A stretch of DNA of 64,000 nt from Deltaproteobacteria bacterium (GTDB taxonomy: Bacteria > Desulfobacterota > Deferrimicrobia > Deferrimicrobiales > Deferrimicrobiaceae). The stretch's first letter is position 1, and each line of letters starts with the position of its first letter. The translations under genes and the position numbers were made by a program. Shown here one piece after another: positions 12,540 through 37,416 of the stretch. Under the pieces are notes generated by a model. It searched no databases. It had not been told where the DNA came from and saw nothing but the letters and a program-made list of their open reading frames with translations. Location of the stretch: assembly GCA_016218975.1 (NCBI GenBank), contig JACRCO010000053.1, positions 15,523 to 79,522 on the forward strand, in the 5' to 3' direction.

Positions 12540-12541
12540 CT

Positions 12542-13708: not shown

Positions 13709-14267
13709 GCAGTTCTTCCACCGCCTTCTGCGTCACGAAATTCATCGGTTCTCCGCCCCCGCCGAAAAGGCGGTCCGCCGTCGTCACCCCCCCCTTGGTG
13801 GTCGCCGCCGTCCAGACCACCTTTCCCGTCTGCGCTTCCATCATCTGGAGGCTCACCGAGATGACGTTCGCACTTGTCGATCCGGACCTCACTTCGCCGT
13901 ATTCCGAGACCGTTCCGGTTATCACCACGTCCGCGTTCAGGTTCTTGGCGAACTTGACGATCTCCTCGGCGGTGGGCGTCGCCGGACGCTCCACATTGGC
14001 CCGGGAAATTCCGCGCGACACTTCCCCGGGAGGGATGACGTAGAGGCCGCCCGTCGCCTGGAGCATCGTCATGAAGACGTCGCGCACCCTGTCGGCCGCA
14101 AGCTGCTCCCTCGTAAGGTTCGTGAACGGCAGGACGGCCACGGCCTGGATGGATCCGAAATCCATGTTCGGATCCCGGAACACGTTATGCGACGTCCCGG
14201 CGCACCCCGTCGCGACGAGCAGAAACAGAAAGACCGCCCTCAGGCGCCGCATCGGCTTTTCTTTCAT
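13686..14267 (-). CDS. Lipoprotein, CsgG/LpoB/DUF799-superfamily-like
   Basis: MKEKPMRRLRAVFLFLLVATGCAGT lipoprotein signal. Hallmark AVAVLPFTNLT...ADVVITGTVSEY...TGKVVW. Confidence 0.7.
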   Translation of the reverse strand: MKEKPMRRLRAVFLFLLVATGCAGTSHNVFRDPNMDFGSIQAVAVLPFTNLTREQLAADRVRDVFMTMLQATGGLYVIPPGEVSRGISRANVERPATPTAEEIVKFAKNLNADVVITGTVSEYGEVRSGSTSANVISVSLQMMEAQTGKVVWTAATTKGGVTTADRLFGGGGEPMNFVTQKAVEELLDKLFGK

Positions 14268-14335
14268 GATCCGGGTCCTCCCCCCATTAATATTACACTG
14301 CCCGCCTCAGGCCGGCCCGCATTCATCATGCGGGT

Positions 14336-16525: not shown

Positions 16526-16529
16526 AACG

Positions 16530-18126: not shown

Positions 18127-19395
18127 TCAGTCCTTCGCGTGGCACTTGTTGCAGAACACACGCTGATACGTCGCAAACTGTGTTACCGGCCTGTCATAGT
18201 ATGCCGTCTTCCACTCGGCCATCGTCCGGCCGCGGTGCTGGAGCGGTGCACGGGAACTGGTCATGGCGGGGTTGTCGCTTCCCAGGTAATTCGAAGCGAC
18301 TGTCATGAATTCATAGCCGTTGTCGTAGCGAAGCATTTCCGCCACGCCGGAGGCATGCGCCCTGTGGCAGGACAGGCACATGACCTGGTCGGTGCTTCCC
18401 GGACCCGCTTTGAGGGCGGAGGAGCCGTTGTTTCCGGCAAGAGCCGCAAGGGCCGTGTAATCGCCGCTGTTCGTCGCGAACGGAGCAAGGGACGAGAACG
18501 CGGTCGCCGAGGTTCCGGTCAGGTCGCCGGATTTTACATAGGAGTTGTAGTTGGCTGCAATGGTGCTGCCGAGCGATTCATCGACCGGGTGCACGTAGTT
18601 GCCGCTGGAATGCATGGCGCCGTGGCAGGTCGCGCACCACTGCCCCCAGGTTACGTGCCCGCTGGCCGTGGCGACACCGTATGCTACGCGGACCTGGTTG
18701 TCGGCCTCGGTCTGGTTGTAGGACGACGGGGCCTTGGCGGCGGGAACGCCGTTGAAGGTTATCCCGTCTTTCGTGTATCCCGCGCCGGCCAGGAGCCTGT
18801 ACACGCCGACCGCCTCGGTCGCCGTAGGCTCGTTGCTGGTGCCGTTATAGGAACCGGAAGCCTTTATGGGTGCTCCGGTCTTCGCGATCGTGCCGCTCTG
18901 GAGTCTCCTGTACTGGCCGTGAGGGTCATGGCAGGAATTGCAGGCGAGCTGCGCGGAGGGGAATGTCCCGCCCGGGGCCGCGGCATTGATCGGATCCACT
19001 ACGTATCCGAAGTCGCCCGCGATGATGTTGTGGCCGTGGATCGCGCCATCCTCGGTATTGGTAGTACCCTGATACGTATAGGTGTAGGTCTTCCTCAGCC
19101 AGCCGAAGTCGCCGCCGGGAGTCCGGTTCACGGGCGACACGCCGTCGCCCATGGCGGAGGCGGTGGTGCTGATATGGTAGCTCGACAGCGTGGGCCCGTC
19201 GTGGCAGGTAAGACACGTGGAGCTCTGGTCCCCTCCGACAAGCAGGAAGGACCCGCCAGCCTTGGGGCTGTGCATGCTGTGGCAGCCTTCGCACTCGGCG
19301 ACGCCGCCCGAATGGAACGCGTAAGCCGTGGTGCCCATTCCGACCGCAAAAAGCGCGGCCGATAGAACGATAAGTGTGATCTTTGCCGCTTTCAT
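18127..19395 (-). CDS. omcS: OmcS-family hexaheme c-type cytochrome (nanowire-type)
   Basis: The mature N-terminus AFHSGGVAECEGCHSMHS matches my recollection of G. sulfurreducens OmcS (FHSGGVAECEGCHTMH). Conserved TPGGDFGW, GHNI, CNSCHDPHGQYRR, CLSCHRAHASG, YQRVFCNKCHAKD. Six CxxCH motifs. RBS GGAGGAGAA. Confidence 0.85.
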   Translation of the reverse strand: MKAAKITLIVLSAALFAVGMGTTAYAFHSGGVAECEGCHSMHSPKAGGSFLLVGGDQSSTCLTCHDGPTLSSYHISTTASAMGDGVSPVNRTPGGDFGWLRKTYTYTYQGTTNTEDGAIHGHNIIAGDFGYVVDPINAAAPGGTFPSAQLACNSCHDPHGQYRRLQSGTIAKTGAPIKASGSYNGTSNEPTATEAVGVYRLLAGAGYTKDGITFNGVPAAKAPSSYNQTEADNQVRVAYGVATASGHVTWGQWCATCHGAMHSSGNYVHPVDESLGSTIAANYNSYVKSGDLTGTSATAFSSLAPFATNSGDYTALAALAGNNGSSALKAGPGSTDQVMCLSCHRAHASGVAEMLRYDNGYEFMTVASNYLGSDNPAMTSSRAPLQHRGRTMAEWKTAYYDRPVTQFATYQRVFCNKCHAKD

Positions 19396-19599: not shown

Positions 19600-20589
19600 T
19601 CATTGCCGTCCCCCTTCCGTTCCGTAGGAAGACAGAGAAAAAACTGAAACCCCCCGGTTTCTCAACTGCGTCACGTACAGCTTTCCCGAATTGCCCACGG
19701 CCACTTCGTTCGGCCGAATCAGGTTCCAGGGTTTCTCTCCCCGGTATCCGAACTCCTGGACGAACCTGAATTCCCTGTCGAACACCATCACGACGCTGCG
19801 AAGCCGCTCGACCACCAGGTAATTGCCTTCGTCGTCGACCGCTATGCCGCTTATGACTCCGAACATTCCGGGAGCGGAACCGGACTTGCCGAAAGAGACG
19901 ATCAGCTTCCCTTCCGGCGACACTACGTACGCCTTGAAATGCACGGCGACCGTGAACAACATGTTCCCCGAACGATCCACGCTGAAACCGAAGATTTCGG
20001 TGGTCAGCCTGTCCTTCTCGGGAACATCGACGATCCGGCCGAAGTCATAACCTTTTTGGAATTTGCCGTTTCGATCGGTGACTATCGCCTGCATCCTGCT
20101 CGTGCTCACCAGGAGCAATTCCCCGCCGCGCATAAACATGCGGTTCGGGCAGAAACCATAAAAATCGCCCGGAAGACCGCCGATCCTGACCGTACCTTTC
20201 AGATCTCCGCGGTAATTGCACTTCGAAATCCAGTAATCGGGACCGTCTGCGGGGTGGCTGAAATCGAAGGAAAGGAGAAGCAGGTCACCCTTTTCATCGA
20301 CGGCGATATCGTAAATCGTGCCGAGCGCCCGATTATCGCCGAACCAGAACACTTCCATGCCGGTTTCGTTGAAAACCTTTACGATTCCGCGGTCAAGGAC
20401 GTATACCTCATCCCTTGCCCGGTCCACGTGAAGCCTTACATCGCTATAAGGAATCTTTCCCGAAAAATTAGAAAGGTTGTAAAGGTACGCGGACTTTACG
20501 TTCGTTGCGAACGCCGGGAAGGAACAAACCAGCAGAAGAAAGAAAGCCGGCAGAATCCTGATCGCTTGTTTTTTGTTGTAACTCCTCAT
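19600..20589 (-). CDS. NHL-repeat protein, secreted
   Basis: Signal peptide MRSYNKKQAIRILPAFFLLLVCSFPAFA. NHL-like repeats (GNYLVVERLRSVVMVFD, GKLYVTQLRNRGVSVF). Confidence 0.8.
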   Translation of the reverse strand: MRSYNKKQAIRILPAFFLLLVCSFPAFATNVKSAYLYNLSNFSGKIPYSDVRLHVDRARDEVYVLDRGIVKVFNETGMEVFWFGDNRALGTIYDIAVDEKGDLLLLSFDFSHPADGPDYWISKCNYRGDLKGTVRIGGLPGDFYGFCPNRMFMRGGELLLVSTSRMQAIVTDRNGKFQKGYDFGRIVDVPEKDRLTTEIFGFSVDRSGNMLFTVAVHFKAYVVSPEGKLIVSFGKSGSAPGMFGVISGIAVDDEGNYLVVERLRSVVMVFDREFRFVQEFGYRGEKPWNLIRPNEVAVGNSGKLYVTQLRNRGVSVFSLSSYGTEGGRQ

Positions 20590-20817
20590 GGCGAATCGTT
20601 ATCAGCAAGCCATATGCCAATCCAAATATAGGCATATTGGCCTTATATAACGACATGTTATGAGTTGCAGATTTCCGAAGGGACCGTTTTACGGGGAAAT
20701 AACGAGTGCAGCTTGGGGTTTTCACCGATGCCGGCTGATTTCAACAAACTGTCATATTTTTGACGCTTTGATATAAATTCCCACTATCGACCTTCCGAAA
20801 TATCCACGGGAGGCGCC

Positions 20818-22086
20818 ATGAAAACAATTTCGGACACCCCCTTATCGGCGGCATTCGTCATGACTGCACTTCTGGTTGCCTTCCCCATTCATCGAGCGGC
20901 AGCGTTCCACGCAGGAGGCGTGGGTGAGTGCTCAGGATGCCACTCCTCCCACAGCGCGGGGGCAAACAATCCCTTCCTTCTCGTTTCGGGCGACCCGAGT
21001 TCCACATGCCTCATGTGCCACATGCAGGCAGGAGAAACAGCCCCGAATGCGCATCACGTGGCAACCGACGAGTCGGACATGCCCTCAGGATCCCCTCCCG
21101 TACAGTTGACCCCCGGCGGAGATTTCGGATGGCTTAAGAAAAATTACAAATGGAATGCGGCCGACGGAGGGCCGGGCGGACAGAGCGCCGGCGAGCGGCA
21201 CGGGCATAACATCGTGGCAGCCGTTTACGGATTCGCGGCGGACACCACGCTGACGGCCGCCCCGGGGGGCGCCTACCCCGCAGCCGGTCTGTCCTGCACA
21301 AGCTGCCATGACCCCCACGGAAGATATCGCCGCCTGGCGGACGGAACCATACAATCCAAGGGATCGCCGGTAGTCGATTCTGGGTCGTACAAAACCAGCC
21401 CGGATCCCACGGAGACGACTGCGGTCGGCGTTTACAGGATGCTCGGCGGCAAGGGATACTCAAGGCCCGGGGCAAGCGAAACGTTCAACTTCGATCCTCC
21501 CGCGGCTGTCGCCCCGCCGGATTACAACCGGTCCGAAAGCGGTTCCGACACGCGGGTCGCCTACGGCGGCGGCATGTCGGAATGGTGCACGAATTGCCAC
21601 GGAGCCTACACCGGGAACCGCAACGCGCCCGGCCACCCGGCTGGAAGCCTCGTCAAGATGACGCCTCGCGCCGTCTCGAATTACAACGCATACGTGTCCT
21701 CCGGAAACGTCACCGGAACTTCTTCGACCGCCTACACGTCCCTCGTGCCGTTCGAAATGGGCACTTCCGATTACGCTCTCCTGAAAAAAGCGGCATCCAC
21801 GGACGGTTCGATGAAAGCGGGGCCGGATACCAACTCCAACGTGATGTGCGTCTCCTGCCACCGGGCGCACGCCTCCGCATGGGACCAGGCGGCCCGCTGG
21901 AACATGAAATCCGAATTCATCCTTTACAACGGAGACTATCCGGGCGCGGACAGGACCGATCTGCCCTTACGCATGTCACAGGGTCGCACGAAGACGGAAA
22001 CCAGGCGCGCTTACCATGAAAGACCGCCGATCGCTTTCGCGAGCTACCAGCGGACACTCTGCAACAAGTGCCACACCATGGATTGA
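20818..22086 (+). CDS. OmcS-family hexaheme c-type cytochrome, paralog
   Basis: AAFHAGGVGECSGCHSSHS, LTPGGDFGWLKK, GHNIVA, CTSCHDPHGRYRR, CVSCHRAHAS, YQRTLCNKCHTMD. RBS GGGAGG. Six CxxCH motifs. Confidence 0.85.
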   Translation: MKTISDTPLSAAFVMTALLVAFPIHRAAAFHAGGVGECSGCHSSHSAGANNPFLLVSGDPSSTCLMCHMQAGETAPNAHHVATDESDMPSGSPPVQLTPGGDFGWLKKNYKWNAADGGPGGQSAGERHGHNIVAAVYGFAADTTLTAAPGGAYPAAGLSCTSCHDPHGRYRRLADGTIQSKGSPVVDSGSYKTSPDPTETTAVGVYRMLGGKGYSRPGASETFNFDPPAAVAPPDYNRSESGSDTRVAYGGGMSEWCTNCHGAYTGNRNAPGHPAGSLVKMTPRAVSNYNAYVSSGNVTGTSSTAYTSLVPFEMGTSDYALLKKAASTDGSMKAGPDTNSNVMCVSCHRAHASAWDQAARWNMKSEFILYNGDYPGADRTDLPLRMSQGRTKTETRRAYHERPPIAFASYQRTLCNKCHTMD

Positions 22087-22263: not shown

Positions 22264-22279
22264 AGGCATATAAATTGCT
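22264..22279 (+). promoter_or_regulatory. Sigma-54-like -24/-12 element (AGGCAT-N5-TTGCT)
   Basis: GG at 22265-66 and GC at 22277-78 have canonical spacing. The -12 GC lies ~14 nt upstream of ATG 22292, implying a nearly leaderless transcript. That is unusual. Confidence 0.3.
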
Positions 22280-22291: not shown

Positions 22292-22975
22292 ATGCTCGAA
22301 ACCGCCCTTAAACGGGTCCTCGTCGTCGACGACGACAACCTGATCTGCTGGGCTCTCGATAAGGAGTTCAACGGCTCCGGCCTGACATCGAATTCGGTGG
22401 AAAATATCGCGGATGCCCTCGAAGAATTGAAAAGGGAACACTACGACGTCGTGTTCCTCGACATCCGCCTGCCGGACGGAGACGGAATCGAAATACTGGC
22501 GGAGATCGGCAGGATATCGCCGGAGTCGCGAACCGTCGTCATGAGCGGAAACGCGAGCGAGGGAAACCGGCAAAGGGCGTTCGAACGGGGGGCGGTGAAA
22601 TTCCTCGAAAAACCTTTCGAGATCTCCGAGGCTCACGCCATATTGAGGGACGCATTGGCCGGACGGCTGAAGAAACGGCGGCATGTAAGGAACCCTTGCC
22701 GCGTCCCCTTGCGCATCACGATCGTGAAACCGTCCCCGGAGGAGGAGAGGTACAGCGTCACGAGCATACGGGCGGTTATGGCGGATGTGGGATTCGGAGG
22801 ATTCGGCATTCGGACGAAATATCTCCTGTCAGTCGGGCAATTCGTTCAGGCGCATGTCGACCCGGCGGGAGGGGATAACGTCATGAAGTATTTCACGCCG
22901 CAAACGACGGCCGAAGTGGTGTGGGTCGCGCCGTCCGTCGAAAGCTTAACGGCAGGCCTCAAGTTCGTTTCCTGA
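22292..22975 (+). CDS. Response-regulator receiver domain fused to a C-terminal PilZ domain (c-di-GMP binding)
   Basis: N-terminal KRVLVVDDD...DVVFLDIRLPDGDG receiver. C-terminal RRHVR...DVGFGGFGI matches PilZ RxxxR/DxSxGG. The track starts the ORF at TTG 22283; ATG 22292 is preferred. Confidence 0.7.
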   Translation: MLETALKRVLVVDDDNLICWALDKEFNGSGLTSNSVENIADALEELKREHYDVVFLDIRLPDGDGIEILAEIGRISPESRTVVMSGNASEGNRQRAFERGAVKFLEKPFEISEAHAILRDALAGRLKKRRHVRNPCRVPLRITIVKPSPEEERYSVTSIRAVMADVGFGGFGIRTKYLLSVGQFVQAHVDPAGGDNVMKYFTPQTTAEVVWVAPSVESLTAGLKFVS

Positions 22976-22990: not shown

Positions 22991-24375
<1,385 letters not shown>

Positions 24376-24379
<4 letters not shown>

Positions 24380-25830
24380 GTGGCCGTCTCCGCAGCAACG
24401 GCGGCGACGGGAAGCAGGATCCGGAACACCGTGCCGCCTCCCGGGTTGTCTGCGGCAGAAATTTCTCCGCCGTGCTGTTCGATCAGCTGTTTGGAAATGG
24501 CCAGTCCCAATCCAGTGCCCTTGGGCTTTGTCGTGAAGAACGGCTGGAAGATCTTTTCGATGTTTTCCCTCGGGATCCCCTTGCCGGTGTCGGCGAATTC
24601 GATCCGAAGGAAATCCGTTTCCTTTTCATGGGAGGTGCGCACCGAGAGCGTTCCCCCGTTGGGCATTGCATCCACGGCGTTCAGGACGAGGTTCAGGAAG
24701 ATCTGCTGGAGCTGCATGGGATCCGCCATCGTTTCCGGGAGCGGCTGAAGGTCCTTCTCTATACGGACGGCGTTCGGGCGGTCCGGCGCAGACGGGCGGC
24801 TTTTCATGTAAAAGGCAAGGACGGTGTTGACGAGGCTGTTTACGTTCAGATCCGCAAGCTGCGGCTTGGCCGGCTTGGCGAAGTTAAGGAAGTTCCTCAT
24901 CAGGGATTCCACGCGCACGACCTCCTGCGCGACTTTGCGGATGACTTCCCGGTCTTCCGCAGACATGCTCGTTTCCTCGGACAGAACGTGCATGGCCACC
25001 TTGATGCCCGCGAGCGGGTTCTTGATCTCGTGGGCAAGGCCCGCCGCCAGCTCGCCGACGATCACCATCTGCTCGGTCCGCTGCATCTTCAACATCTGTT
25101 CCTTGAGCGATGCCGCCATCTCGTTGAACGATGCAGCCAGCTCTCCGAATTCGTCCTTCAGGGCCTCGACCCGGTGATCCAGGTTTCCGGCTTTCAGCTT
25201 TCTCGTCGAATCGAGCAGCACGTTGACCGGGTTCGTCAGCCCGGACAGGAATATGTAGCCGAGGAACGCCGACATCAACGGGCCGATCCCGACGAGGAAA
25301 TACAGCATATACTTCGTCCGCGCGATGCGGATCATCGCCCTTTGCGTATTCTCCGCAAGCTTCGAGCTCGTGATCGCGATCACGTCCCGGACCTTGCCGA
25401 TCAGGTCCTCTCCGATCTGGAAGGCCGCATCCTCCTCCGCCAGGATCCTTGCGGTGTTCGCGCGAAGCGTCAGCACGCGGCTCAATGCGTCCTTGTAGGT
25501 CTCCGTCTGCTTTTTCAGGTCCTGGAGCCTCTCGGTCGCCTGCTGGTTGTGATGGCAGTCGAAACAGGTATCTACGATCCTTCCCATGCTGACGACGTTC
25601 TGGACGACGGTGTCGAAAGTACGCTTATGCCGCGTGTCCTTGAGGGTCAGGTCCGTTTGGACCCTTTTTACCTGCAGCAGGTAGTGCTCCCTCAGGATTT
25701 CCACCTGGTGGAGCGTTATCAGCCTGTCGAGCTCAGTCGTCGCGGACTGGATGATGTAGATGATGTAGATGCCGCAGAGGAGAAAAAACAGCGTATAGAT
25801 GCCAAGGCCGATGATTATCTTCTTCTTCAT
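24376..25830 (-). CDS. Sensor histidine kinase (TM, periplasmic domain with one CxxCH, TM, HAMP, HisKA, HATPase)
   Basis: TM1 IIIGLGIYTLFFLLCGIYII. Periplasmic loop contains VDTCFDCHHN (about 25552..25566). TM2, HAMP, H-box LAAGLAHEIKNPL, G-boxes DTGKGI / GTGLGLAIS. Overlaps the regulator gene by 4 nt. Confidence 0.85.
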
Positions 25831-25839: not shown

Positions 25840-26748
25840 TCAGTCGTTGATGTAGTCGTAGGTGGCCAGGTTGAGATGGATTTCACTCGCGTAGTTCACG
25901 ACGGGGGTGTAATCCGCGTTCGTGGTTTCGATGAACCATCGCGCCCCGAACTGCTCCAGGACCGCCTTCCCCTCCGGATCTTCGTGCATTTTCAGAAGCG
26001 CATCCTTCATGCTGCTTCTCAACGCCTTATCGATATCCTTCCGGAGAGCCAGGCCGTTTTCGGGGACGTCGGGAGACTTCGCGAGAATCGTCAGCTCCTT
26101 CAGGATACGCGGGTCCGCCTTCGCGACCCGGTAGTACACCGTATTTTTCGCCGCTCCGACATCGGCTTTCCTGTTCAACACGTCGTATACGGCATCCTCG
26201 TGCGTCCCCGAGAAATACGCTTCCCCAAGGTATTTCTTCCAGTCGTCGATTCCCGCCTCGTGAAAATACCGCTTCGGGAACAGGTAGCCTGCGGTCGTGG
26301 CCTTGTCCACTAAGGCGAACCGCTTTCCCTTCATCTCCCGTCTGGACGCGATGCCGCTGTCCTTCCGCACGAAGATCAACCCGTGGTAGCTCGAGGTGTT
26401 GTCGAGCGCAACCGGCCTGGCCAGCACTTCCACCCCGATTTTGGCGTGGGCGAGCGCATATGTGAAACTCCCGAAGAATGCGCCGTCCAATCCCGCCATC
26501 TTGAAGTTGTCTATGATGTTCCCGTACCTGGGGAGGATCTTAAGCGTGATCCTCGTCCCGGTTTTCGACGAGAGATAGACGGCAAGGGGCTCGTATCGCT
26601 CGATCTGCTTGAAAATGTTCTGTTCCGGAATAAGGCCGATCAGTATGGTCTTTCGCTTGTCCGCGGAAGGCTTGAAAGGCGTATTTTCCTGGCTGCACCC
26701 GGCGAGAAGAAAAAGGAAGAGGCATGCGGCGAGCAGATGTCGGGCCAT
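25840..26748 (-). CDS. PhnD/SsuA-like periplasmic substrate-binding lipoprotein (phosphonate-ABC SBP family)
   Basis: MARHLLAACLFLFLLAGCSQ lipoprotein signal. LIGLIPEQNIFK...LPRYGNIIDNF...GAFFGSFTYA...VDKATTAGYL typical of the PhnD family. Confidence 0.8.
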   Translation of the reverse strand: MARHLLAACLFLFLLAGCSQENTPFKPSADKRKTILIGLIPEQNIFKQIERYEPLAVYLSSKTGTRITLKILPRYGNIIDNFKMAGLDGAFFGSFTYALAHAKIGVEVLARPVALDNTSSYHGLIFVRKDSGIASRREMKGKRFALVDKATTAGYLFPKRYFHEAGIDDWKKYLGEAYFSGTHEDAVYDVLNRKADVGAAKNTVYYRVAKADPRILKELTILAKSPDVPENGLALRKDIDKALRSSMKDALLKMHEDPEGKAVLEQFGARWFIETTNADYTPVVNYASEIHLNLATYDYIND

Positions 26749-26797: not shown

Positions 26798-27706
26798 TCA
26801 GTCATTTATGTAGTCGTAGGTGGCGAGGCTCAGGCCGGCTTCTTTTGCATACCTTGCCACGGACTCGTAATCCTTGTTCGTGGTCTCGACGAATCTCCGC
26901 GCACCGAACTGCTCCAGCACCGACTTTCCCCTGGCGTCGAGGTGCATGTTCAGGAGCGCATCCTTCAAACCGGTTCGGAAGGAATCTTCGATATCCTTCC
27001 GGAGCGCCAGGGAGTTTTCCGGCATGTCGGGGGATGTTTCCAGGATCGACAACTCTCTTTTTATCCGCGGGTCGGATACCGCGACCCGGTTGAACACCGT
27101 GTTCTTCGACGCGCCTATGTCGGCCTTCCTGTTGAGCACATCGAAGATCGCGTCCTCGTGCGTTCCCGTAAAATAACCCTCCTTGAGATATTTTCTCCAA
27201 TCGATTCCCTTCTCATGGAAATATTTCAGGGGGAAAAGATAACCGGCGGTCGTCGCCTTGTCCACGAAAGCGAACCGCTTCCCTTTCATGCCGTCGATCG
27301 TCCTGATCCCGCTGTCCTTCCTTACGAAAATCATCCCGTGGTAGGTGGATGTGTTGTCGTTGTATTCCGGACGCGCAAGGACTTCCACCCCAAGCTTCGC
27401 GTGGGCAAGCGCGTACGTGAAACTCCCGAAAAATGCGCCGTCCAGCCCCGACATCCTGAAATTGTCGATGATGTTCCCGTACCTCGGGAGAATTTTAAGA
27501 GATATATTCATCCCGGTTTTCGCGGAGAGATACGCGGCCACGGGTTCGTATCTCTCCAACTGCTTGAATATGTTCTGCTCCGGTATCAGCCCGATAAGGA
27601 CGGTCTTCCGGTTGACCGCCGGGGATCTTGAAGGAGGATTGTCCTGGCTGCACCCTGCCGCAATAACAACTCCCAGGATAACGATAAAAGCCGATCTCCG
27701 GAACAT
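26798..27706 (-). CDS. PhnD/SsuA-like periplasmic substrate-binding lipoprotein, tandem paralog
   Basis: Same motifs as the 25840..26748 gene (LIGLIPEQNIFKQLERYEP...). Visibly similar at the DNA level. Confidence 0.8.
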   Translation of the reverse strand: MFRRSAFIVILGVVIAAGCSQDNPPSRSPAVNRKTVLIGLIPEQNIFKQLERYEPVAAYLSAKTGMNISLKILPRYGNIIDNFRMSGLDGAFFGSFTYALAHAKLGVEVLARPEYNDNTSTYHGMIFVRKDSGIRTIDGMKGKRFAFVDKATTAGYLFPLKYFHEKGIDWRKYLKEGYFTGTHEDAIFDVLNRKADIGASKNTVFNRVAVSDPRIKRELSILETSPDMPENSLALRKDIEDSFRTGLKDALLNMHLDARGKSVLEQFGARRFVETTNKDYESVARYAKEAGLSLATYDYIND

Positions 27707-27747: not shown

Positions 27748-30700
27748 CTATAGTTCATGCTGGCCTTTCTTGTGGCAGCGCTTGCAGAGATCGGCCCGCT
27801 TGTTCGCATTCGTCATTTTTTCGAAATCGGATCCGTGCGGGTTATGGCAACTGATGCAATCGATGTACTTACCCGTTTTCGCATCCACGTATTTCCCTTT
27901 TCCCATCCCGTGGAGGTGAGTGTCGGGAACCTTCGGATGGCAACCAAGGCACAGTTTGTTCATGTCCGCCGAGAGCAGCTTGGGCTGTTCCCCCGTATGC
28001 GCCACGTGGCAGCTTTCGCAACCCTTCTCCACGGGTGGGTGCTTATAGGTAACCTTCGCCATTTCCGCGCCGTGGCAATCGAAGCACAGGCCCGGAGAAG
28101 AACGGTAAAGCAGGCCCTTCGCAGGCGCGGAGTGCGGCGAATGGCAGCTGCCGCATTTTTTGTCCGAATCGATCGGGAAGTGGCGTGTTTTCCCCGCAAA
28201 TCCCTTTTTCTTCACATCCTGGTGGCAGTTGAAGCAGAGGTCCGGGCCTCGGGCCGAAAGCTCCTTTTTCCCCTCTCCCGCATGGCATGATACGCACTTC
28301 CCCTCGGAATACGGCTGATGTCCGAAGTTGTGCGCCAGCGCCTTTGCGCCCTTTGCGCCGGCATGCGGGTCGTGGCAGGTGAGGCAATCGGCCCTCGAAA
28401 TATCCATTCCCCTGTGTTTCGGGGCCGCTCCGGCGGCATCGTGGCAGGTCCAGCAGATGTCCGGAACCGGCTTCGAGAGCAGCCGCCTCTGGTTCGTCCC
28501 GTGCGGATCGTGGCAGGAACCGCAGGCGCCTTCGGCGACCGGGTCGTGGAGTTTTTTCCCCGCGAGCCCCTGCCTGAACGATTCGTGGCACCCGTAGCAG
28601 AACTCCTTCTCCGGTTTCGGCAGAAGGAACCTGTTCCCCGCCGAGTGGGCGGCGTGGCACGCCTTGCACGATCCTTCCTCGAGGGGCTTGTGCCTGTATT
28701 TCCTTTGCGGAATGTCGGCCTTGTCGGAATGGCATGCGTTGCAGAATTTCGCACCCTGCGCGACGAGCAGTTTATCCCCCGAAGATGCATGCGGGTCGTG
28801 GCATGATACGCACTCTCCCTTCTTCACCGGTCCGTGCACCACAGGGTCCTTCTGCGTCTTCTCCATCCCGGAATGACAGGTGAAGCAGAGCTTCTCCTTC
28901 GGCGCGGCCAGCACGATTTCGCCGTTCGCCCCCGCCTTTCCGTGGCATGAATCGCATTTGCGGGTTTTGAACGGCTCGTGGGCCTTTGCCTTCATCAGCT
29001 TTCCGGTTACCGAAGAGTGCGGGTCGTGGCACGAGGCGCAGTTGGATTTCCTGTCCGCCATGTCCCGGTGGACCTTCCGGAATTCATCTTTCGTGAGGCT
29101 GTGGCAGGAGGCGCACAGGTCCCCCACCGGTTTCACGAGGCTGCCGGGATTGCTGGAGCCGTGTGGGGAGTGGCAGGTGTCGCACTTCTCCTTCTCCACC
29201 GGAAGGTGGACCTTCCCCTCCCTGAACCGCTTCTTCTCCTCCTTGTGGCAGGAGTAGCAGAGCTCGGCGCCGGCCAGTGAAAGAAGCTTCGGCCGGTCCG
29301 CGCCGTGCGGATCGTGGCAGCCGGCGCAGTCTCCCCGGGCCGCCGGCGTGTGCACCGCCCTTCGCTTGAAGATCTCCTTCAGATCGTCATGGCACGAAAG
29401 ACACAGCGATTTTTCATCCTTCGCCAGCATTGCCTTCGTGTCGCTGCCGTGAGGACCGTGGCAGGAAACGCACCCTTCCGTGGCGGGGGAGTGGGGGAAC
29501 TTCTTCGCCACGGCCTTCTTCATGTCCCCGTGGCACGTGTAGCACAGGCCGGCGCCTTCCTGCTTCGTTAGCCCCTTGCCCTCCGAGCGGTGCGGAGTGT
29601 GACAAACCGAACACCCCTGTTCGACAAGCGGTTTGTGCTTGCGGCGATATCCCCCGGCTTCCTTCAGGTCGCCGTGGCAGCCGGTGCACAGGACGGCTTC
29701 GGCCGCGACGAGCAGCTTCCCGTTCAGCGTCGAGTGGGCGCCGTGGCACGTCAGGCAGCCGTTGTCGTCTAAAGCCGCGTGGCGCGTCCCGGTCCGGGCG
29801 AGCTCCTTCGCGACCTTTTCGTGGCAGGAAAGGCAGAGTCCTTCCCCTGCGGACCTGACGAGTTTTTTGTTGTCCGATCCGTGCGATTCGTGGCAGGCGT
29901 CGCACCGGCTTTTCGCCATAGGAGCGTGTACCTGCGGCTTTTTGAAATCGTCGTCGAGGCGCAGGTGGCATTCGAGGCATATTCCCTTCAAATCGCCTTT
30001 CAGGAGGGGACGCGAAGCGCTTTTGTGCGGCGAGTGGCATTTCAGGCAGTCCCCGTCCCTGGCCGGGAAGTGCGAAACCGGTTTCTTCGTCTTTTTCGAG
30101 ATGTCGTCGTGGCAGTTGGCGCACAGCTCCTTGACCGGCTGGACCAGGGAGCTCTTCACCTTCCCTTCCGTTCCGACCTCGTGGCAGTCGGCGCAGTCCC
30201 CGCGCGCATACGGCTCGTGGACTTCCGGCAACACCCCGCCCTTTTTCGCCGTTCCGTGGGGGCTGTGGCAGGCGGTGCAGGACTGGTTCTTCACCTCCGC
30301 TATGTCGTGAGGCTTTTTCCCCGCCGTTTTTTCCGCCGCGTGGCAGGAGAAGCATAGGTCATTTCCAGCCTTCAGCAGCAGCCTCGGTTCGTCGGTCGAG
30401 TGAGGCGGGTGACAAAGCGAACACTCCCCGTTCCTGAACGGCGAATGGATCCAGACGCCGGACGAAAGCCGCTTCATCTCCTTGTGGCATTCGAAGCAGA
30501 CGGAGGACTTGTCGGCGGTTTCCCTGACGAGCCCTTTGAGGTTCGAAGCATGGGGGTCGTGGCAGGCGGTGCACTCGCCTTTTTTCGCCGGAGAGTGCAT
30601 CGTTTTCTTCCCGAACTTGTCCTTCAGGTCCTTGTGGCACGAATAGCAGAGCTGCGCGCCCTTTTCCTTGAGGATCAGCTTGTTCGAGAAGCCGTGGCGC

Positions 30701-30897
30701 CGGTGGCACGCCTCGCAGTCCTCCTTCGCCACGGGAGCGTGCACGAATTTCCTTTGATGCGCCGCCTTCGCTTTCGGGTGGCAGTCGTAGCAGCCCTTTT
30801 TCGCCGCCAGGATATCGCCCGCGCCACCGGCGAAAATGCAAAGGATTGCGACAGTAGATAAAGCGCCCAGGACCGCTATCCGCCGAACCGTTTTCAT
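27748..30897 (-). CDS. Giant multiheme cytochrome c, about 42 CxxCH motifs (1,049 aa)
   Basis: Signal peptide MKTVRRIAVLGALSTVAILCIFAGGAG. I counted 42 CxxCH motifs, regularly spaced (c7-polymer type), alternating CxxCHxxH and CxxCH. Confidence 0.9.
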   Translation of the reverse strand: MKTVRRIAVLGALSTVAILCIFAGGAGDILAAKKGCYDCHPKAKAAHQRKFVHAPVAKEDCEACHRRHGFSNKLILKEKGAQLCYSCHKDLKDKFGKKTMHSPAKKGECTACHDPHASNLKGLVRETADKSSVCFECHKEMKRLSSGVWIHSPFRNGECSLCHPPHSTDEPRLLLKAGNDLCFSCHAAEKTAGKKPHDIAEVKNQSCTACHSPHGTAKKGGVLPEVHEPYARGDCADCHEVGTEGKVKSSLVQPVKELCANCHDDISKKTKKPVSHFPARDGDCLKCHSPHKSASRPLLKGDLKGICLECHLRLDDDFKKPQVHAPMAKSRCDACHESHGSDNKKLVRSAGEGLCLSCHEKVAKELARTGTRHAALDDNGCLTCHGAHSTLNGKLLVAAEAVLCTGCHGDLKEAGGYRRKHKPLVEQGCSVCHTPHRSEGKGLTKQEGAGLCYTCHGDMKKAVAKKFPHSPATEGCVSCHGPHGSDTKAMLAKDEKSLCLSCHDDLKEIFKRRAVHTPAARGDCAGCHDPHGADRPKLLSLAGAELCYSCHKEEKKRFREGKVHLPVEKEKCDTCHSPHGSSNPGSLVKPVGDLCASCHSLTKDEFRKVHRDMADRKSNCASCHDPHSSVTGKLMKAKAHEPFKTRKCDSCHGKAGANGEIVLAAPKEKLCFTCHSGMEKTQKDPVVHGPVKKGECVSCHDPHASSGDKLLVAQGAKFCNACHSDKADIPQRKYRHKPLEEGSCKACHAAHSAGNRFLLPKPEKEFCYGCHESFRQGLAGKKLHDPVAEGACGSCHDPHGTNQRRLLSKPVPDICWTCHDAAGAAPKHRGMDISRADCLTCHDPHAGAKGAKALAHNFGHQPYSEGKCVSCHAGEGKKELSARGPDLCFNCHQDVKKKGFAGKTRHFPIDSDKKCGSCHSPHSAPAKGLLYRSSPGLCFDCHGAEMAKVTYKHPPVEKGCESCHVAHTGEQPKLLSADMNKLCLGCHPKVPDTHLHGMGKGKYVDAKTGKYIDCISCHNPHGSDFEKMTNANKRADLCKRCHKKGQHEL

Positions 30898-30919: not shown

Positions 30920-31537
30920 CTATTTTCGAAGCGACGCGGAGAACGCCCTGGCCATCTCGGCCGCCGTCTCCTCCGCGAGGTTGTTGATGGAATGGATCCT
31001 GCCTATCCCGAAAACCGTTTCCCTGTCGCTGCCTCGCCGGGAGGCGTTGCCCGCCCAGACGATATCCCCCGTGGAGGCGTCGAGTATGCGAAGGGACATC
31101 GAGACCACCGGAATCTGTCCCGAGCCCCCCGCCCCCGTGGCGATCTGCATGTCGAAGTCGTGCACCGTTCCCATCATGAACAGGTCCACTCCGAGCCCTC
31201 TGCCCAGGGCGACGAGGGTCTCCCTGGGTATGCTGGTCGCCAGCCGTACCCTCTCCTTCGAAAGCATGGCGTTAACCTCGCCGGGATCGAGGACCATAAC
31301 CGGGGCGTTTTTCAGGAGTTCCACGAGGATGTAGCTTTCCATCGATTTCCCCGCCCCCTGGGTCTTGCTCAAATTCTCGAACGGCAGGATCGCCATCTTC
31401 ACCCCTTCGCCTTTCCTGAGGCCGGCGCCGGTGAACGGCTTCAGGGTGGGTCCGCACCCGAACAGCAGCGCGGAGACCAGCAGCAGGGCGGCGATCCGCA
31501 AACGAGACGATCGGCGTCCGGTAACGTGTATTCCCAT
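30920..31537 (-). CDS. Lipoprotein, CsgG/LpoB/DUF799-superfamily-like
   Basis: LLLVSALLFGCGPT lipobox. VKMAILPFENLSKT...VDLFMMGTVHDF...TGDIVW. Confidence 0.7.
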   Translation of the reverse strand: MGIHVTGRRSSRLRIAALLLVSALLFGCGPTLKPFTGAGLRKGEGVKMAILPFENLSKTQGAGKSMESYILVELLKNAPVMVLDPGEVNAMLSKERVRLATSIPRETLVALGRGLGVDLFMMGTVHDFDMQIATGAGGSGQIPVVSMSLRILDASTGDIVWAGNASRRGSDRETVFGIGRIHSINNLAEETAAEMARAFSASLRK

Positions 31538-31552
31538 CTTCGTACCCGCTTT

Positions 31553-32167
31553 CTATTTCGAATATGCCTTCTTGTAGAAATCCTTGACGACGATTGCGCA
31601 CGATTTTTGCGAAAGTTCCCCGAGCGTGAACGTTTCGCCGATGCTGACGACGGGGAGATACGGACCGCCGGTGGCATTTATGCTCCCTTGCCACGCCACT
31701 GTTCCGGTGGGAGCGTCGATGAACTTGACCGTCATGGAGATCATCGGGTATTGATCCCCGCCGAGCTGGATCAGCTTGAAGTCGTGGACCGTCCCCGTGA
31801 ATACCCCCTGGACTCCCGCGACGCTCGCAACCTGGGAAAGCTGGGAGGGACTCAATTCGAGCGTCGACGTCGGAGCGTTCGACCGGACGACCTGCGCCAC
31901 CACGGCGTTGAACTGCCCCGGGTCCATCACTTCCAGTTCTCCGGCGATAAGCAGCTCGGTCATGAAATTCTCCGTCACCTTCTCCCCCGCGAGCCGGTCC
32001 TCGGCCTGGTTGCGGAACGGCATGAGCCCTACCTTCTTGTAAAAAGCAAAGTCCGCCTGGGGGTTCAGGAAACTTCGAGTGCTGACCAGCGAAGAGCAGC
32101 CGGCCGCGCACGAGGCGAGCAGGAGCACGAAGCCGAAAAGCATTCTTCTTGCCATTCGATCTCCCAT
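31553..32167 (-). CDS. Lipoprotein, CsgG/LpoB/DUF799-superfamily-like
   Basis: FVLLLASCAAGCSS lipobox. KKVGLMPFRNQA...VQGVFTGTVHDF...TGTVAW. Confidence 0.7.
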   Translation of the reverse strand: MGDRMARRMLFGFVLLLASCAAGCSSLVSTRSFLNPQADFAFYKKVGLMPFRNQAEDRLAGEKVTENFMTELLIAGELEVMDPGQFNAVVAQVVRSNAPTSTLELSPSQLSQVASVAGVQGVFTGTVHDFKLIQLGGDQYPMISMTVKFIDAPTGTVAWQGSINATGGPYLPVVSIGETFTLGELSQKSCAIVVKDFYKKAYSK

Positions 32168-33924
32168 CAGAACGATTTGCTGAAACGGACCCGGAAGAAG
32201 TCTGTCCGTTCCTCCCTGAAAAGTTGCGTGCCGGAATAGGCAAGCTCCAGGCTGACACGCTTCCTGAATGCGAGCCCCAGCGTCCCCGAGAAGGTATGGT
32301 CGCTCCTGCCTGCCGCCTGCCTCGCGCCGTAGTTCAGGCTCATCTGGTGCCCGCGCCGGAAACGGTAGGCCATCGTTCCAGTGGCCGAATAAGACGATCT
32401 CCCGGTCTCCGGCAGCGACACCGTCCCGGAAAGGCCGTAGATGGTCCGCCGGTTGGCCATGTATGAAAGGGAAGTGTTGAAGTTCTGGTTGCCGATCCTG
32501 CCGAGGTCCAGCCGTTCGGCGGACGATGCCGAGGAATAGCTGAGCGCCAGGTTCGTCTTGTCGGTAGGTATCGCGTTCACCTGGACCGACTTGTTGACCG
32601 AATAACTTTCCGTGACCGGTTCGACGTGGGCCGTAAGGACCCAGTCTCCGATCGCGGTCGAGTTCTTCGTGTACAGGTCGTTGCCGACGACGTCGAAATA
32701 GGTGAAGCCGGGAGGACGGTCGTCGAACAGGACCCTGTCCGCCAGCGTCCCGGAAGCGTTGTAGCCGGCCGTGCTTACGAAAGTGCGCGACTCGCTCCGG
32801 TTCGCGTTCAGGTTCAGGCGCAGCGAGATCCGCTGCGTCAGGTCCATCGTGGAGTTGACCCCGAAATTGTCGCTTACGTTCCTGCCCTGGTCAGGGTCGG
32901 ATTCGACGCTCCGCGAACCGCTCGCCCCGAGAAGTACCCCCTCCCTTAGCTGCTTGCTGACGTTGGCGGCGTAAGTGACGAAATCGACGCTGCGCATCGT
33001 CTGCGCGTCGTTGAAACGCCTGTTTCCCGTCGTGCCCGAGAACCGCAGGAAGGGATATGGGTCGAGGTTGGCGGTCACGTCGGAGAACTGCTGCGTGGTC
33101 CTGGTCACGGCGGCGGACGGGGAATCGAAGTCGGTGTCCGTCCTCGAGTAATTCCCTGTGAATCCGAGCCACGGCAAGGGCCGCGTGTCGGCGCTCATGC
33201 GGAAGGCGTTGCCGATCGTCGCCGTCTCCTGCCCCGCGCCGCTCGTGGCGGAAAAGCGGTTGTAATCGTAGTCGCCCGTCAAGGTCGTCCTGGGCAGGAT
33301 TTCGTAGCTCCCCCCGAAACCCAGCAAGACGGTAGACGACTCCAGCCCCGCCTGCCCTCCGGACGTTCTCCGGTCGTTGGAATACCCCCCGCGGAAGTTC
33401 ATCCACTTGTACCGGTAGTCGCCGAAGAAGGATGCCGTGTCGCTCGACGTGACCGATCCCCCGGTCGCCGACTCGGTGCGCGAGAAGCTCGCCGAGAGCC
33501 GGGGGAGATCCTTGGGGGAAAGAGAAAGGGCCGCCCTGGAATTGCTCGTCTCGGTCAGCTGTGCGGCGGAGCTTATGGTGGAAAAACGGCTATGCTGGAG
33601 ATTCAGGGCGAACGCCTCCCCGGACAGATCCATACCCAGGTTGCCGACGGGGGATACGTTCAATACGCTCTCTTCGTCGGACCTGGTGTAGTTGAGGCGG
33701 AGGCTCAGGCGCGCCTGGATCTTTTTTTTCGTGGGCGGATATAAATCGAGGTTCACTCCGCCCTGGAAAAGCCTGGTGTCGTCCCGGGGCCCTCTCGCGT
33801 ATGTATCATCGAGGAAGAAATTACCGTTCACGCGTGTTATCGCCTCCGCGCGCTGCGGCGCGGCCGCCGTCAGCAGCGATGCAGCCGCCGCAAGAGCCAG
33901 AATTTCGAGCCATCCGGACTTCAA
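32167..33924 (-). CDS. Predicted outer-membrane beta-barrel protein, paralog-like of the 14336..16525 protein (start uncertain: TTG 33924 or ATG 33978)
   Basis: Ends ...FFRVRFSKSF (C-terminal aromatic). Signal peptide KSGWLEILALAAAASLLTAAAPQRAEA. Ser/Thr/Asn/Arg-rich strand-like composition. The full ORF would overlap the upstream cytochrome gene. Confidence 0.6.
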   Translation of the reverse strand: MKSGWLEILALAAAASLLTAAAPQRAEAITRVNGNFFLDDTYARGPRDDTRLFQGGVNLDLYPPTKKKIQARLSLRLNYTRSDEESVLNVSPVGNLGMDLSGEAFALNLQHSRFSTISSAAQLTETSNSRAALSLSPKDLPRLSASFSRTESATGGSVTSSDTASFFGDYRYKWMNFRGGYSNDRRTSGGQAGLESSTVLLGFGGSYEILPRTTLTGDYDYNRFSATSGAGQETATIGNAFRMSADTRPLPWLGFTGNYSRTDTDFDSPSAAVTRTTQQFSDVTANLDPYPFLRFSGTTGNRRFNDAQTMRSVDFVTYAANVSKQLREGVLLGASGSRSVESDPDQGRNVSDNFGVNSTMDLTQRISLRLNLNANRSESRTFVSTAGYNASGTLADRVLFDDRPPGFTYFDVVGNDLYTKNSTAIGDWVLTAHVEPVTESYSVNKSVQVNAIPTDKTNLALSYSSASSAERLDLGRIGNQNFNTSLSYMANRRTIYGLSGTVSLPETGRSSYSATGTMAYRFRRGHQMSLNYGARQAAGRSDHTFSGTLGLAFRKRVSLELAYSGTQLFREERTDFFRVRFSKSF

Positions 33925-33935
33925 CCTCCGCCGAC

Positions 33936-37301: not shown

Positions 37302-37416
37302 GAACGTCGCGCCGCCAAGCCGGCGGGCGAGCCCCCGCGAGGGACACCCCGTGAGGCGTGCGTAGCCCGGCACTGTAACGGAAAATATTTTCGGAGCGGA
37401 AGACATCGGCTGTCGC

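Follow-up and report, generated by a model that had tools for sequence, protein, structure and literature searches.

What do two sensor kinases perceive when each appears to carry a c-type haem motif outside the cytoplasm, and which genes do they control? The question is raised by K1 (24376..25830, minus strand) and its paralogue K2 (46756..48216, minus strand), both encoded in the 64,000-nucleotide stretch of a Deferrimicrobiaceae contig that we refer to as the window. On our best reading, their sensor domains represent the periplasmic haem-c sensor in a new variant of fold, one that probably responds to redox state and controls genes for extracellular electron transfer. Taken as a whole, the picture of a four-helix sensor with a covalent haem c, set in an AioXSR-like module and exerting sigma-54 control over extracellular electron-transfer cytochromes, has in our judgement an even chance of being right.

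The haem motif and its topology

K1 is a sensor histidine kinase of 484 residues, recognized from its open reading frame, Pfam matches and hydropathy. It is laid out as TM1, a haem-motif four-helix sensor, TM2, HAMP (residues 198-244), HisKA (259-319) and HATPase_c (370-476), the last three spans being those of Pfam. K2 has 486 residues and is 55% identical to K1 overall and 52% identical in the sensor domain. The initial annotation had reported a single CxxCH between TM1 and TM2 of both proteins, at about residues 89-93, and translation and hydropathy agree. In K1 the motif reads CFDCHH (residues 89-94; 25549..25566, minus strand), which translation and conservation mark as a putative haem c attachment site; in K2 the translation gives CFTCHH (residues 89-94; 47935..47952, minus strand). 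Neither loop has a cysteine besides the CxxCH pair. Shuffling the loop residues 200,000 times yields a CxxCH in 0.04-0.06% of cases, and 18 proteins encoded in the window that are not cytochromes (9,950 aa in all) contain none. The third kinase, K3 (55793..57277, minus strand), had been described as lacking the motif; Pfam assigns its loop to sCache_3_2, and inspection of that loop finds no CxxCH.

Kyte-Doolittle windows place TM1 at about residues 5-27 and TM2 at about 175-197 in both K1 and K2. Since the N-terminus is MKKK and the Pfam HAMP match starts at residue 198, straight after TM2, the 147-residue loop between the two transmembrane segments is periplasmic and not cytoplasmic, a point on which the haem proposal had been staked. 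In K1 this predicted four-helix bundle spans residues 28-174 (25309..25749, minus strand). Within the motif His93 is the putative proximal ligand, and the near-invariant His94 stands next to it. Conservation and an AF2 model also draw attention to a stretch of helix 1 from His41 to Arg47 (within LHQVEILR; 25690..25710, minus strand), where we infer that His41 is a candidate distal ligand and Arg47 a candidate partner of a haem propionate.

Fold of the sensor domain

Two AF2 models, with pLDDT values of 83 and 86, are all-helical and free of strands. They describe an up-down-up-down four-helix bundle in which helices 1 and 4 are continuous with TM1 and TM2, and in which the invariant CxxCHH occupies the turn that joins helices 2 and 3 close to the membrane. 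Confidence reaches its minimum exactly around the motif, as expected if a cofactor is missing from the model. LytS-N is among the top-ranked natural fold matches. A fold check for a cytochrome-c'-like or PAS-like haem pocket had been suggested, and here the expectation has to be revised: as modelled, the sensor fold is a Tar/NarX/LytS-type four-helix bundle, neither PAS/Cache-like nor a relative of cytochrome c'.

Two known classes were considered and set aside. Identity with sCache_haem (DUF3365/Tll0287) disagrees with the all-helical models, and Pfam gives no DUF3365 match. Cytochrome c' (class II cytochrome c) is a soluble bundle with its CxxCH near the C-terminus, features that the K1 and K2 domains do not share. 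In the literature that can be read without a subscription, we found no four-helix-bundle haem-c sensor.

A small family of sensor domains

The CxxCH motif was left out of the pattern used to scan for related genomic loci, of which 80 were collected. All 80 encode exactly one CxxCH, always 48 residues past the His of HQxEIxR and with no indel between. A word-free HMM search over 1.84 billion representatives returned only 293 clusters, and 132 near-full-length domains, each a cluster representative, were compared. Conservation of the motif in orthologues was the other point on which the proposal could have failed; C89, C92 and H93 are present in all 132 and are the sole invariant residues of the sensor domain. 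Close behind come H94 (131/132), the arginine R47 (129/132) and the histidine H41 (122/132). In the other 10 members residue 41 is Tyr, Gln, Asn or Ser, which rules out strict bis-His ligation as a scheme for the whole family. The two middle residues of CxxCH are variable, the first being F, S, L, T or Y and the second S, G, D, T or E.

HAMP follows the sensor in all 67 members whose architecture was compared, with HisKA/HATPase outputs in 54-55, GGDEF in 8 and EAL in 6. The hosts are anaerobes from sediments and groundwater, represented by MAGs that include Deferrimicrobiaceae, Nitrospirota/Thermodesulfovibrionia, Acidobacteriota and Desulfobacterales. Ten cluster representatives that we looked up bear generic metagenome names, with no haem annotation and no cultured organism among them. 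Residues 28-174 of K1 and K2 match no Pfam or NCBIfam family at E <= 0.01, matches being confined to HAMP or the kinase core. Likewise, of the 33 families found in the 67 members, the 25 most frequent include no curated four-helix sensor profile (4HB_MCP_1, TarH, PilJ, CHASE3 and similar), and the family profile finds only HAMP matches among PDB sequences. K1 and K2 are members of an extracytoplasmic sensor-domain family that is small and unannotated.

Cytochrome genes beside the kinases

The initial annotation placed these kinases with sigma-54 activators next to cytochrome genes. This holds at both loci: a regulator gene overlaps the stop of each kinase gene, and cytochrome genes flank K1 and K2 alike. 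The cytochromes can now be named more closely, as hexahaem proteins of the OmcS family. Near K1 are two of 422 residues, one at 18127..19395 (minus strand; six CxxCH, phmmer match to PDB 6ef8 at 3.8e-108 over the full length) and one at 20818..22086 (plus strand; 2.1e-118 to 6ef8). Near K2, OmcS-related hexahaem genes lie downstream of the NHL gene of that locus (42139..43536, minus strand; 2.5e-10 to 6ef8) and between an MtrB-like porin gene and the binding-protein gene SBP2 (49149..50516, minus strand; 1.3e-22 to 6ef8). At least nine multihaem cytochrome genes are found in the window, one of them with 42 CxxCH motifs, and this number implies a cytochrome c maturation system elsewhere in the genome, as no ccm or ccs gene was identified within the window. 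Among the related loci, a multihaem gene lies within 6 kb in 42 of 80. The closest relatives show a strong link between kinase and cytochrome genes, which does not extend to the whole family.

Between the two 422-residue cytochrome genes lies NHL329 (19600..20589, minus strand), an open reading frame with a signal peptide whose secreted product is a homologue of the NHL-repeat propeller genes of the window. It matches no Pfam family at E <= 0.001. Homologues occur in 12 loci, and some could equally be assigned to the NHL-positive genes 43611..44675/44726 and 36384..37499. NHL329 is the putative first gene of a target operon.

This context bears on a rival account, in which the haem is a sensor of a diatomic gas (NO, CO or O2), as in cytochrome c' or the sCache_haem receptors, with a sixth position that is open or weakly ligated and a switch thrown by gas binding. 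The incomplete conservation of His41, with Tyr, Gln, Asn or Ser as alternatives, fits a residue of a distal pocket better than an obligatory ligand. Some members have GGDEF or EAL outputs, as NO sensors often do, and NO and CO are ligands of the best-studied haem-c sensors of the periplasm (PMC8396549, PMC12889525). Yet the genes around the kinases speak of extracellular electron transfer and not of NO or nitrogen-oxide metabolism, and the hosts are sediment and groundwater anaerobes. We regard gas sensing as unlikely and prefer a redox signal, with K1 and K2 probably helping to switch on the adjoining OmcS-type "nanowire" cytochrome genes.

Binding proteins and regulators

A gene for a PhnD/PtxB-family binding protein lies directly upstream of each of K1, K2 and K3. 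At K1 it encodes SBP1a (25840..26748, minus strand; Pfam PF12974, 8e-59), by its LAGC sequence and visible signal peptide a probable lipoprotein, whose relatives in the PDB are PtxB (1.5e-30) and, at about 1e-12, ArrX and AioX. Next to it is a second PhnD-like gene, SBP1b (26798..27706, minus strand), with a product 71% identical to SBP1a. At K2 the corresponding gene is SBP2 (48217..49194, minus strand; PF12974, 1.6e-62), for which a start-codon scan gives GTG 49194 as the only in-frame start preceding the signal peptide. The binding-protein gene is a third component of these loci, absent from the initial annotation.

Downstream, K1 is paired with a sigma-54-dependent response regulator (22991..24379, minus strand) and K2 with another (45371..46759, minus strand) that is 55% identical to the first. 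Both are NtrC-type, with Pfam domains REC, Sigma54_activat and HTH_8, the central one an AAA+ domain, and the start of each overlaps the stop of its kinase gene, an arrangement of translational coupling. Convergent with the K1-locus regulator is a REC-PilZ gene (22292..22975, plus strand), and convergent with the K2-locus regulator is a single-domain receiver gene (44974..45366, plus strand). Both are assigned by Pfam and have homologues in 26 and 22 related loci, respectively, and a small receiver gene is found in 48 of 80. A PhnD-like gene is present in 69 of 80 loci and stands directly upstream of the kinase in at least 60 of 74; the sigma-54 regulator is directly downstream in 54 of 66. 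By gene content and order, the binding protein, kinase and sigma-54 regulator form a conserved module with the AioXSR layout.

In view of this three-component layout, a second, ligand input may be integrated, and a further rival account goes beyond that: the primary signal would be a small oxyanion-like ligand on the binding protein, as in AioX/AioS/AioR, and the haem would be structural or gating. The frequent presence of the gene directly upstream and its duplication at K1 speak for this, and the haem-less K3 has the same partner, so the binding protein alone may suffice for signalling in this scaffold. Two of the PDB relatives, AioX and ArrX, are binding proteins that act in signalling (PMC5908839), and LytS-N, one of the top-ranked natural fold matches, signals only through its bound binding protein (PMC8050422). 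Against it, the sensor domain is invariant only in its haem motif and not in a docking surface, a haem with no more than a structural role would be unusual and expensive for the cell, and no oxyanion transporter or enzyme genes were found in the loci. Moreover, several relatives have no adjacent binding-protein gene (e.g. loci L012, L014 and L024), which supports the haem as an autonomous sensor. We consider an oxyanion as primary signal improbable, much as we do the gas, and retain the haem as the likelier site of signal input.

Sigma-54 elements

Taken alone, the window is a poor guide to sigma-54 promoters: the strict consensus has 2 matches against 1.02 expected, and 29 of 100 shuffles do equally well. 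We therefore replaced the strict window-only scan with a comparative scan with controls. One candidate promoter, AGGCATATAAATTGCT (22264..22279, plus strand), has its GC 13 nt before ATG 22292 of the REC-PilZ gene; another, CGGCACGCCGATTGCG (44946..44961, plus strand), lies 13 nt before ATG 44974 of the single-domain receiver gene and is identical in a syntenic locus (L040). A third candidate, TGGCATATGGCTTGCT (20604..20619, minus strand), precedes the NHL and OmcS-like gene pair, and a weaker element of the same type, CGGCATGCCCGATGCA (44691..44706, minus strand), precedes the K2-locus NHL gene at 43611..44675. Across the related loci, -24/-12 elements occur upstream of 20 of the 24 REC-PilZ homologues with enough upstream sequence and of 22 of 23 scanned single-domain receiver homologues (42/47 receiver-gene homologues in all), as well as 12 of 14 NHL-gene homologues. 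In the controls, such elements precede 4/66 binding-protein genes and 0/15 cyt422b homologues. These counts point to candidate RpoN-type promoters at the neighbouring genes.

Proposed mechanism

The maturation of such a domain would require little that is special. The Ccm system demands little beyond an exported CxxCH; cytochrome b562, a four-helix bundle, is matured to a c-type haem protein when given an engineered CxxCH; and in a Ccm- or Ccs-proficient cell an exported CxxCH is normally haem-loaded. After Sec export of K1 or K2, the cytochrome c maturation machinery of the host would most likely link one haem to Cys89 and Cys92, with His93 as its proximal ligand. A haem-free CxxCHH that joins His41 in binding a periplasmic metal (Zn, Cu or Fe), or that acts as a thiol/disulfide redox switch, is very improbable: two cysteines with two or three histidines could chelate a metal and CxxC can cycle between dithiol and disulfide, but a His right after the second Cys in every one of the 132 domains is the attachment signature of haem c, the middle residues vary freely, unlike those of thioredoxin-type or zinc-knuckle motifs, the family is found in MAGs of Deferrimicrobiaceae and others with multihaem genes near more than half of the loci, and the general rule of haem loading just given speaks against it as well.

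With haem c in place, the cofactor would pack on a stripe of helix 1 (L40, H41, E44, R47, L50) and a stripe of helix 4 (M150, A154, L158, T162). This placement is derived only from the lengths of the helices and their conservation stripes, and the His41-to-haem geometry only from the lengths. Signalling would begin with an altered oxidation or ligation state of the haem, probably as His41 binds or leaves as the sixth ligand. Helix 1 would move relative to helix 4, and this movement, relayed through the membrane to HAMP, would determine the activity of the kinase. The bundle is probably also a docking site for one or two of the PhnD/PtxB-family binding proteins, in the way XylFII docks on LytS. 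The phosphorylated sigma-54 activator would then act at -24/-12 promoters before the small receiver gene (REC-PilZ or REC only) and before operons that pair an OmcS-like gene with a beta-propeller gene, either one of the NHL-repeat genes or the homologue at 19600..20589. The module would thereby tune the supply of cytochromes for extracellular electron transfer to periplasmic redox poise.

A bolder form of this proposal seems to us possible, though we would sooner bet against it. K1, K2 and their relatives would be an unrecognized class of extracytoplasmic haem sensor (with family membership judged in a comparison that excludes the G. sulfurreducens haem-motif kinases GSU0283, 0303, 0356, 1302, 2314, 2816 and 2916), in which the Tar/NarX four-helix bundle, a type of receptor fold without a cofactor, would have gained a covalently bound haem c at the hairpin next to the membrane. 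This haem would sense the redox poise of the pool of periplasmic electron carriers and, jointly with a PhnD-family binding protein, would govern the sigma-54-dependent expression of OmcS-type nanowire cytochromes and their NHL partners in uncultured Deferrimicrobia, Nitrospirota, Acidobacteriota and relatives.

Significance

The periplasmic haem-c sensors characterized so far are only Cache/PAS-like (GSU0582, GSU0935, Tll0287). If K1 and K2 are haem-bearing four-helix receptors, the second major extracytoplasmic sensor fold has also recruited a covalent cofactor. As the helices presumed to contact the haem run directly into TM1 and TM2, the domain would make a very simple system for the study of transmembrane signalling. 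How cytochrome nanowires are regulated is little understood, and there is debate over what they do physiologically (PMC11077965). A regulator dedicated to redox sensing would open a direct test of when and why nanowires are made, and would be a candidate redox-responsive switch for bioelectrochemical engineering.

Comparison with known systems

A close parallel is sCache_haem, or DUF3365-Tll0287 (G. sulfurreducens GSU0582 and GSU0935; PMC12889525, PMC8396549). Like the K1/K2 family, these domains have a single strictly conserved CxxCH, lie outside the cytoplasm between two transmembrane segments, are followed by HAMP and by kinase, chemoreceptor or c-di-GMP outputs, and are found in metal-reducing anaerobes. 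Their fold, however, is the alpha/beta Cache fold, in which a short inserted helix bears the motif, whereas the K1/K2 domain is predicted to be an all-helical bundle with the motif at the turn of helices 2 and 3; their distal ligand is Met, where we propose His41, or none, for K1 and K2. Cytochrome c' and cytochrome b562 likewise hold one haem in an antiparallel four-helix bundle, and that of cytochrome c' is covalently attached through CxxCH and gas-reactive. Both are soluble, with the ligands of the haem close to the C-terminal end of helix 4, whereas the K1/K2 motif is mid-domain in a membrane-tethered protein.

In gene order the parallel is AioX/AioS/AioR, together with ArxXSR and ArrXSR (PMC5908839): a PhnD/PtxB-family protein, a two-TM kinase and a sigma-54 regulator, with RpoN-type promoters at the targets and control over respiratory electron-transfer enzymes. 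The AioS sensor has been modelled as sCache-like, with no haem reported (PMC8050422), a description that suits K3 and not K1 or K2. The targets also differ, being arsenic enzymes there, whereas the putative ones near K1 and K2 are NHL proteins and OmcS-like cytochromes. We found no arsenic genes in the window, and the binding proteins of the K1 and K2 loci are nearer to PtxB than to AioX.

The XylFII-LytS xylose sensor (PDB 5xsd/5xsj), in which the docked binding protein activates LytS, resembles the proposed arrangement. LytS, Adeh_2942 (4k0d), the Vc1313 LBD (8bsa), NarQ/NarX and Tar are four-helix sensors that are cofactor-free and 7-13% identical to the K1/K2 domain. The binding-protein families differ, Peripla_BP_4 for LytS against Phosphonate-bd at K1 and K2. 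The partner regulator of LytS is presumably also of a different type from the sigma-54 regulators of K1 and K2.

Finally, Geobacter sulfurreducens has a kinase and a sigma-54 regulator (GSU2507/GSU2506) beside omcS (GSU2504), as is the case here. The two papers on that locus report no PhnD-like gene beside GSU2507, its neighbours being the hypothetical GSU2505 and the TPR protein GSU2508. By annotation, the sensor of GSU2507 is a Cache_1 domain (PMC10599522), and the protein stands outside the list of G. sulfurreducens haem-motif signal proteins (PMC8396549). Its loss alters the transcript levels of omcB and pilA (PMC11077965).

A haem motif in the periplasmic loop of two kinases

Two paralogous sensor kinases have intact ORFs on the minus strand: K1 (24376..25830, 484 aa) and K2 (46756..48216, 486 aa). 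The initial annotation had described a single CxxCH between TM1 and TM2 of each and none in a third kinase, and both observations hold. Hydropathy places TM1 at residues ~5-27 and TM2 at ~175-197; given the MKKK N-terminus and the HAMP domain immediately after TM2, the 147-residue loop between them is periplasmic, not cytoplasmic. Pfam assigns, in order, HAMP (198-244), HisKA (259-319) and HATPase_c (about 370-477). Each loop has two cysteines, both in the motif at residues 89-94, CFDCH(H) in K1 and CFTCH(H) in K2. With 55% identity between the kinases over their full length, and 52% within the sensor, this counts as one observation rather than two. CxxCH arises in 0.04-0.06% of shuffles of the loop residues and does not occur in 18 window proteins that are not cytochromes (9,950 aa in total); a chance origin is excluded. 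The third kinase, K3 (55793..57277, minus strand), has an sCache_3_2 loop without CxxCH.

Conservation of the sensor family

The motif proves to be conserved. A word-based search with K1 residues 1-222 recovered 43 relatives, and H41, Q42, E44, I45, R47, C89, F90, C92 and H93 are invariant in 26 aligned sequences (43-70% identity). Scanning 185,579 species-representative genomes with the pattern HQVEILRE, which does not contain the motif, gave 156 relatives; exactly one CxxCH is present in 80/80 fetched loci, always 48 residues past the His of HQxEIxR. When a trimmed sensor profile was run as a word-free HMM search against 1.84 billion cluster representatives, just 293 clusters matched at E <= 1e-3, 237 of them at <= 1e-10. 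C89, C92 and H93 are kept in 100% of the 132 near-full-length domains, while the two positions between the cysteines vary freely. R47 is kept in 129 of these, and position 41 is His in 122, with Tyr (5), Gln (3), Asn (1) or Ser (1) in the others. What defines the family is the haem-attachment signature. His94 (K1 nt 25549..25551), after the proximal His of CxxCHH, is kept in 131/132 members. It cannot serve as a ligand on the haem face that His93 occupies; candidate roles are a second ligand state, a propionate or proton relay, or a partner contact.

Family members come from MAGs or metagenomes and have generic names only. The best match (~68% identity) is from Candidatus Deferrimicrobium / Deferrimicrobiaceae, and further hosts carry the labels Nitrospirota/Thermodesulfovibrionia, Acidobacteriota, Dissulfurispiraceae, Desulfobacterales and Syntrophales. 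Judged by the closest relatives, the window seems to come from a Deferrimicrobiaceae-like organism.

A predicted four-helix bundle and haem site

The sensor region has no sequence match in Pfam, NCBIfam or the PDB, and no database family includes it. Two AlphaFold2 models (residues 1-220, pLDDT 83; residues 24-182, pLDDT 85.9, pTM 0.74) both show four helices, 25-62, 72-90/91, 96-121 and 126 onward into TM2, with the motif at the helix 2/3 turn. Confidence is lowest exactly at the motif, as expected where a cofactor is missing from the model. Fold comparison named the four-helix-bundle sensors PcaY, McpN, HK9, NarQ, QseE, Tsr, NarX and TorS, and Foldseek agreed (TM 0.70-0.78). From the helix lengths, the turn lies level with residues ~41-48 of helix 1 and ~154-162 of helix 4, where conserved stripes run (L40, H41, E44, R47, L50; M150, A154, L158, T162). 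We infer that the predicted haem would pack at this level, ~20-30 Angstrom above the membrane, against the two helices that lead on into TM1 and TM2.

The domain behaves as a module, followed by HAMP in 67/67 scanned members and joined to outputs that include histidine kinases (54-55), hybrid kinases with receivers (21), GGDEF (8) and EAL (6).

A three-component gene module

A PF12974 (PhnD-type) binding-protein gene precedes each of the three kinases, and an overlapping sigma-54 NtrC-type regulator gene lies downstream. The gene is tandemly duplicated at K1 (25840..26748 and 26798..27706, minus strand; 71% identity) and single at K2; one copy was scored in most related loci. PDB relatives are PtxB (1.5e-30), PhnD, HtxB and the signalling proteins ArrX and AioX (~1e-12). 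The binding proteins of the window have signal peptides, and a Cys past the hydrophobic core makes those at K1 and K2 probable lipoproteins. Among 80 related loci, 69 contain a PhnD-like gene (strictly next to the kinase in at least 60 of the 74 with room), the regulator is directly downstream of the kinase in 54/66, and in 48 the regulator meets a small receiver gene tail to tail (REC-PilZ 26, REC only 22). In the window these receivers are 22292..22975 (REC-PilZ, plus strand) at K1 and 44974..45366 (REC only, plus strand) at K2; they carry their own sigma-54 elements and could provide feedback or a branch output, possibly c-di-GMP-linked through PilZ.

This layout of binding protein, kinase and sigma-54 regulator is that of AioX/AioS/AioR (PMC5908839). 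The K3 module (57247..58182, 55793..57277 and 54425..55792, minus strand) has it in canonical form, and AioS, modelled as sCache-like (PMC8050422), corresponds to K3; in K1 and K2 the same scaffold bears the haem-motif bundle instead. One related locus, L001, shares the CysS / O-methyltransferase flank of K3, but there the next genes form a haem-motif kinase module, pointing to a swap of sensor domains within one scaffold.

Reports of haem-c motifs in Geobacter signal proteins go back to the genome paper, and 12 such proteins are listed (PMC8396549); of these, GSU0582 and GSU0935 have been characterised and are now classed as sCache_haem (PMC12889525). The G. sulfurreducens kinase and sigma-54 regulator GSU2507/GSU2506 likewise adjoin omcS and influence omcB and pilA expression, although the GSU2507 sensor is annotated as Cache_1 (PMC11077965, PMC10599522). 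A haem-c sensor built as a four-helix bundle is not described in the literature searched. K1 and K2 represent a predicted periplasmic haem-c sensor in a new fold, within an AioXSR-type module.

Neighbouring cytochrome genes

The proposed placement beside sigma-54 activators and cytochrome genes is borne out at both loci. Four hexahaem genes are, by their matches to PDB 6ef8, relatives of the nanowire cytochrome OmcS: 18127..19395 (minus strand, 3.8e-108), 20818..22086 (plus, 2.1e-118), 49149..50516 (minus, 1.3e-22) and 42139..43536 (minus, 2.5e-10). A further candidate for this set is 40712..42112 (minus). NHL-repeat beta-propeller genes (36384..37499, 37417..38328, 43611..44726 and 6524..7690), or the homologous 19600..20589 with no Pfam match of its own, share clusters with the OmcS-like genes. 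The closest relatives (L001-L011) conserve the order binding protein, kinase, regulator, small receiver, OmcS-like, NHL, OmcS-like, and at one of the related loci, L040, the K2 locus recurs in full, MtrB-like porin included.

Upstream of the K2 binding-protein, kinase and regulator genes lie an MtrA-like decahaem gene (53211..54116, minus) and an MtrB/PioB porin gene (50698..53199, minus; Pfam 1.5e-130), with the OmcS-like 49149..50516 in the MtrC position directly before the kinase operon. The shared strand, immediate adjacency and a sigma-54-type element in front (54241..54226, minus, ~110 nt before the MtrA-like gene) indicate that this operon may be co-transcribed with the porin-cytochrome conduit.

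Directly upstream of both K1-locus binding-protein genes, 27748..30897 (minus) encodes a 1049-aa cytochrome with 42 CxxCH in 21 paired-CXXCH repeats; homologues precede the module in several loci labelled Acidobacteria/Acidobacteriota (L016, L019, L025, L034). It adjoins a CsgG/LpoB-like lipoprotein gene (30920..31537). Large ORFs of the cytochrome island (30920..34098, minus; 7718..16606) lack a Pfam match (643, 748, 719, 756 and 513 aa), and at its left edge 1339..6423 (plus) encodes a 1694-aa, presumably surface or adhesin-like protein with beta-helix, MBG, Big and PKD domains.

Proposed mechanism and alternatives

Haem binding by K1 and K2 is predicted with high confidence, and the original interpretation as haem-based sensors is supported with refinements. 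In the best-supported reading, which we hold with moderate confidence, haem c would be bound covalently to the sensor domain; a change in its redox or ligation state, probably via His41 on helix 1, would move helix 1 against helix 4 and signal through HAMP, with the binding protein as a second input. That the haem instead senses a gas has precedent and would suit the imperfect conservation of His41, but the electron-transfer context makes it unlikely. We consider it equally doubtful that the binding-protein ligand is the main signal and the haem an accessory: the AioXSR analogy and K3 favour this, yet the invariant part is the haem motif, not a docking surface, and the binding-protein gene is missing in some relatives (L012, L014, L024), where the haem domain presumably suffices for sensing. 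A non-haem metal or disulfide site is very improbable: the second Cys is invariably followed by His, and the many multihaem genes of the window imply a host that matures cytochromes.

Candidate sigma-54 promoters

The output of the favoured redox or ligation switch would pass to the sigma-54 regulators. A comparative scan of related loci for GG-N10-GC elements found one upstream of 20/24 REC-PilZ, 22/23 REC-only and 12/14 NHL genes, against 4/66 binding-protein genes and 0/15 cyt422b homologues in the two control sets. The window has such elements at 22264..22279 and 44946..44961 (plus), 20619..20604 (minus) and, weaker, 44706..44691 (minus), besides 54241..54226 (minus) ahead of the MtrA-like gene. 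We infer that the regulators activate these candidate promoters. The -12 GC lies 13-14 nt before the start codon at the first three and ~16 nt before it at the weaker element, and an equal offset recurs in many related loci, which implies near-leaderless sigma-54-dependent transcripts, unusual if so.
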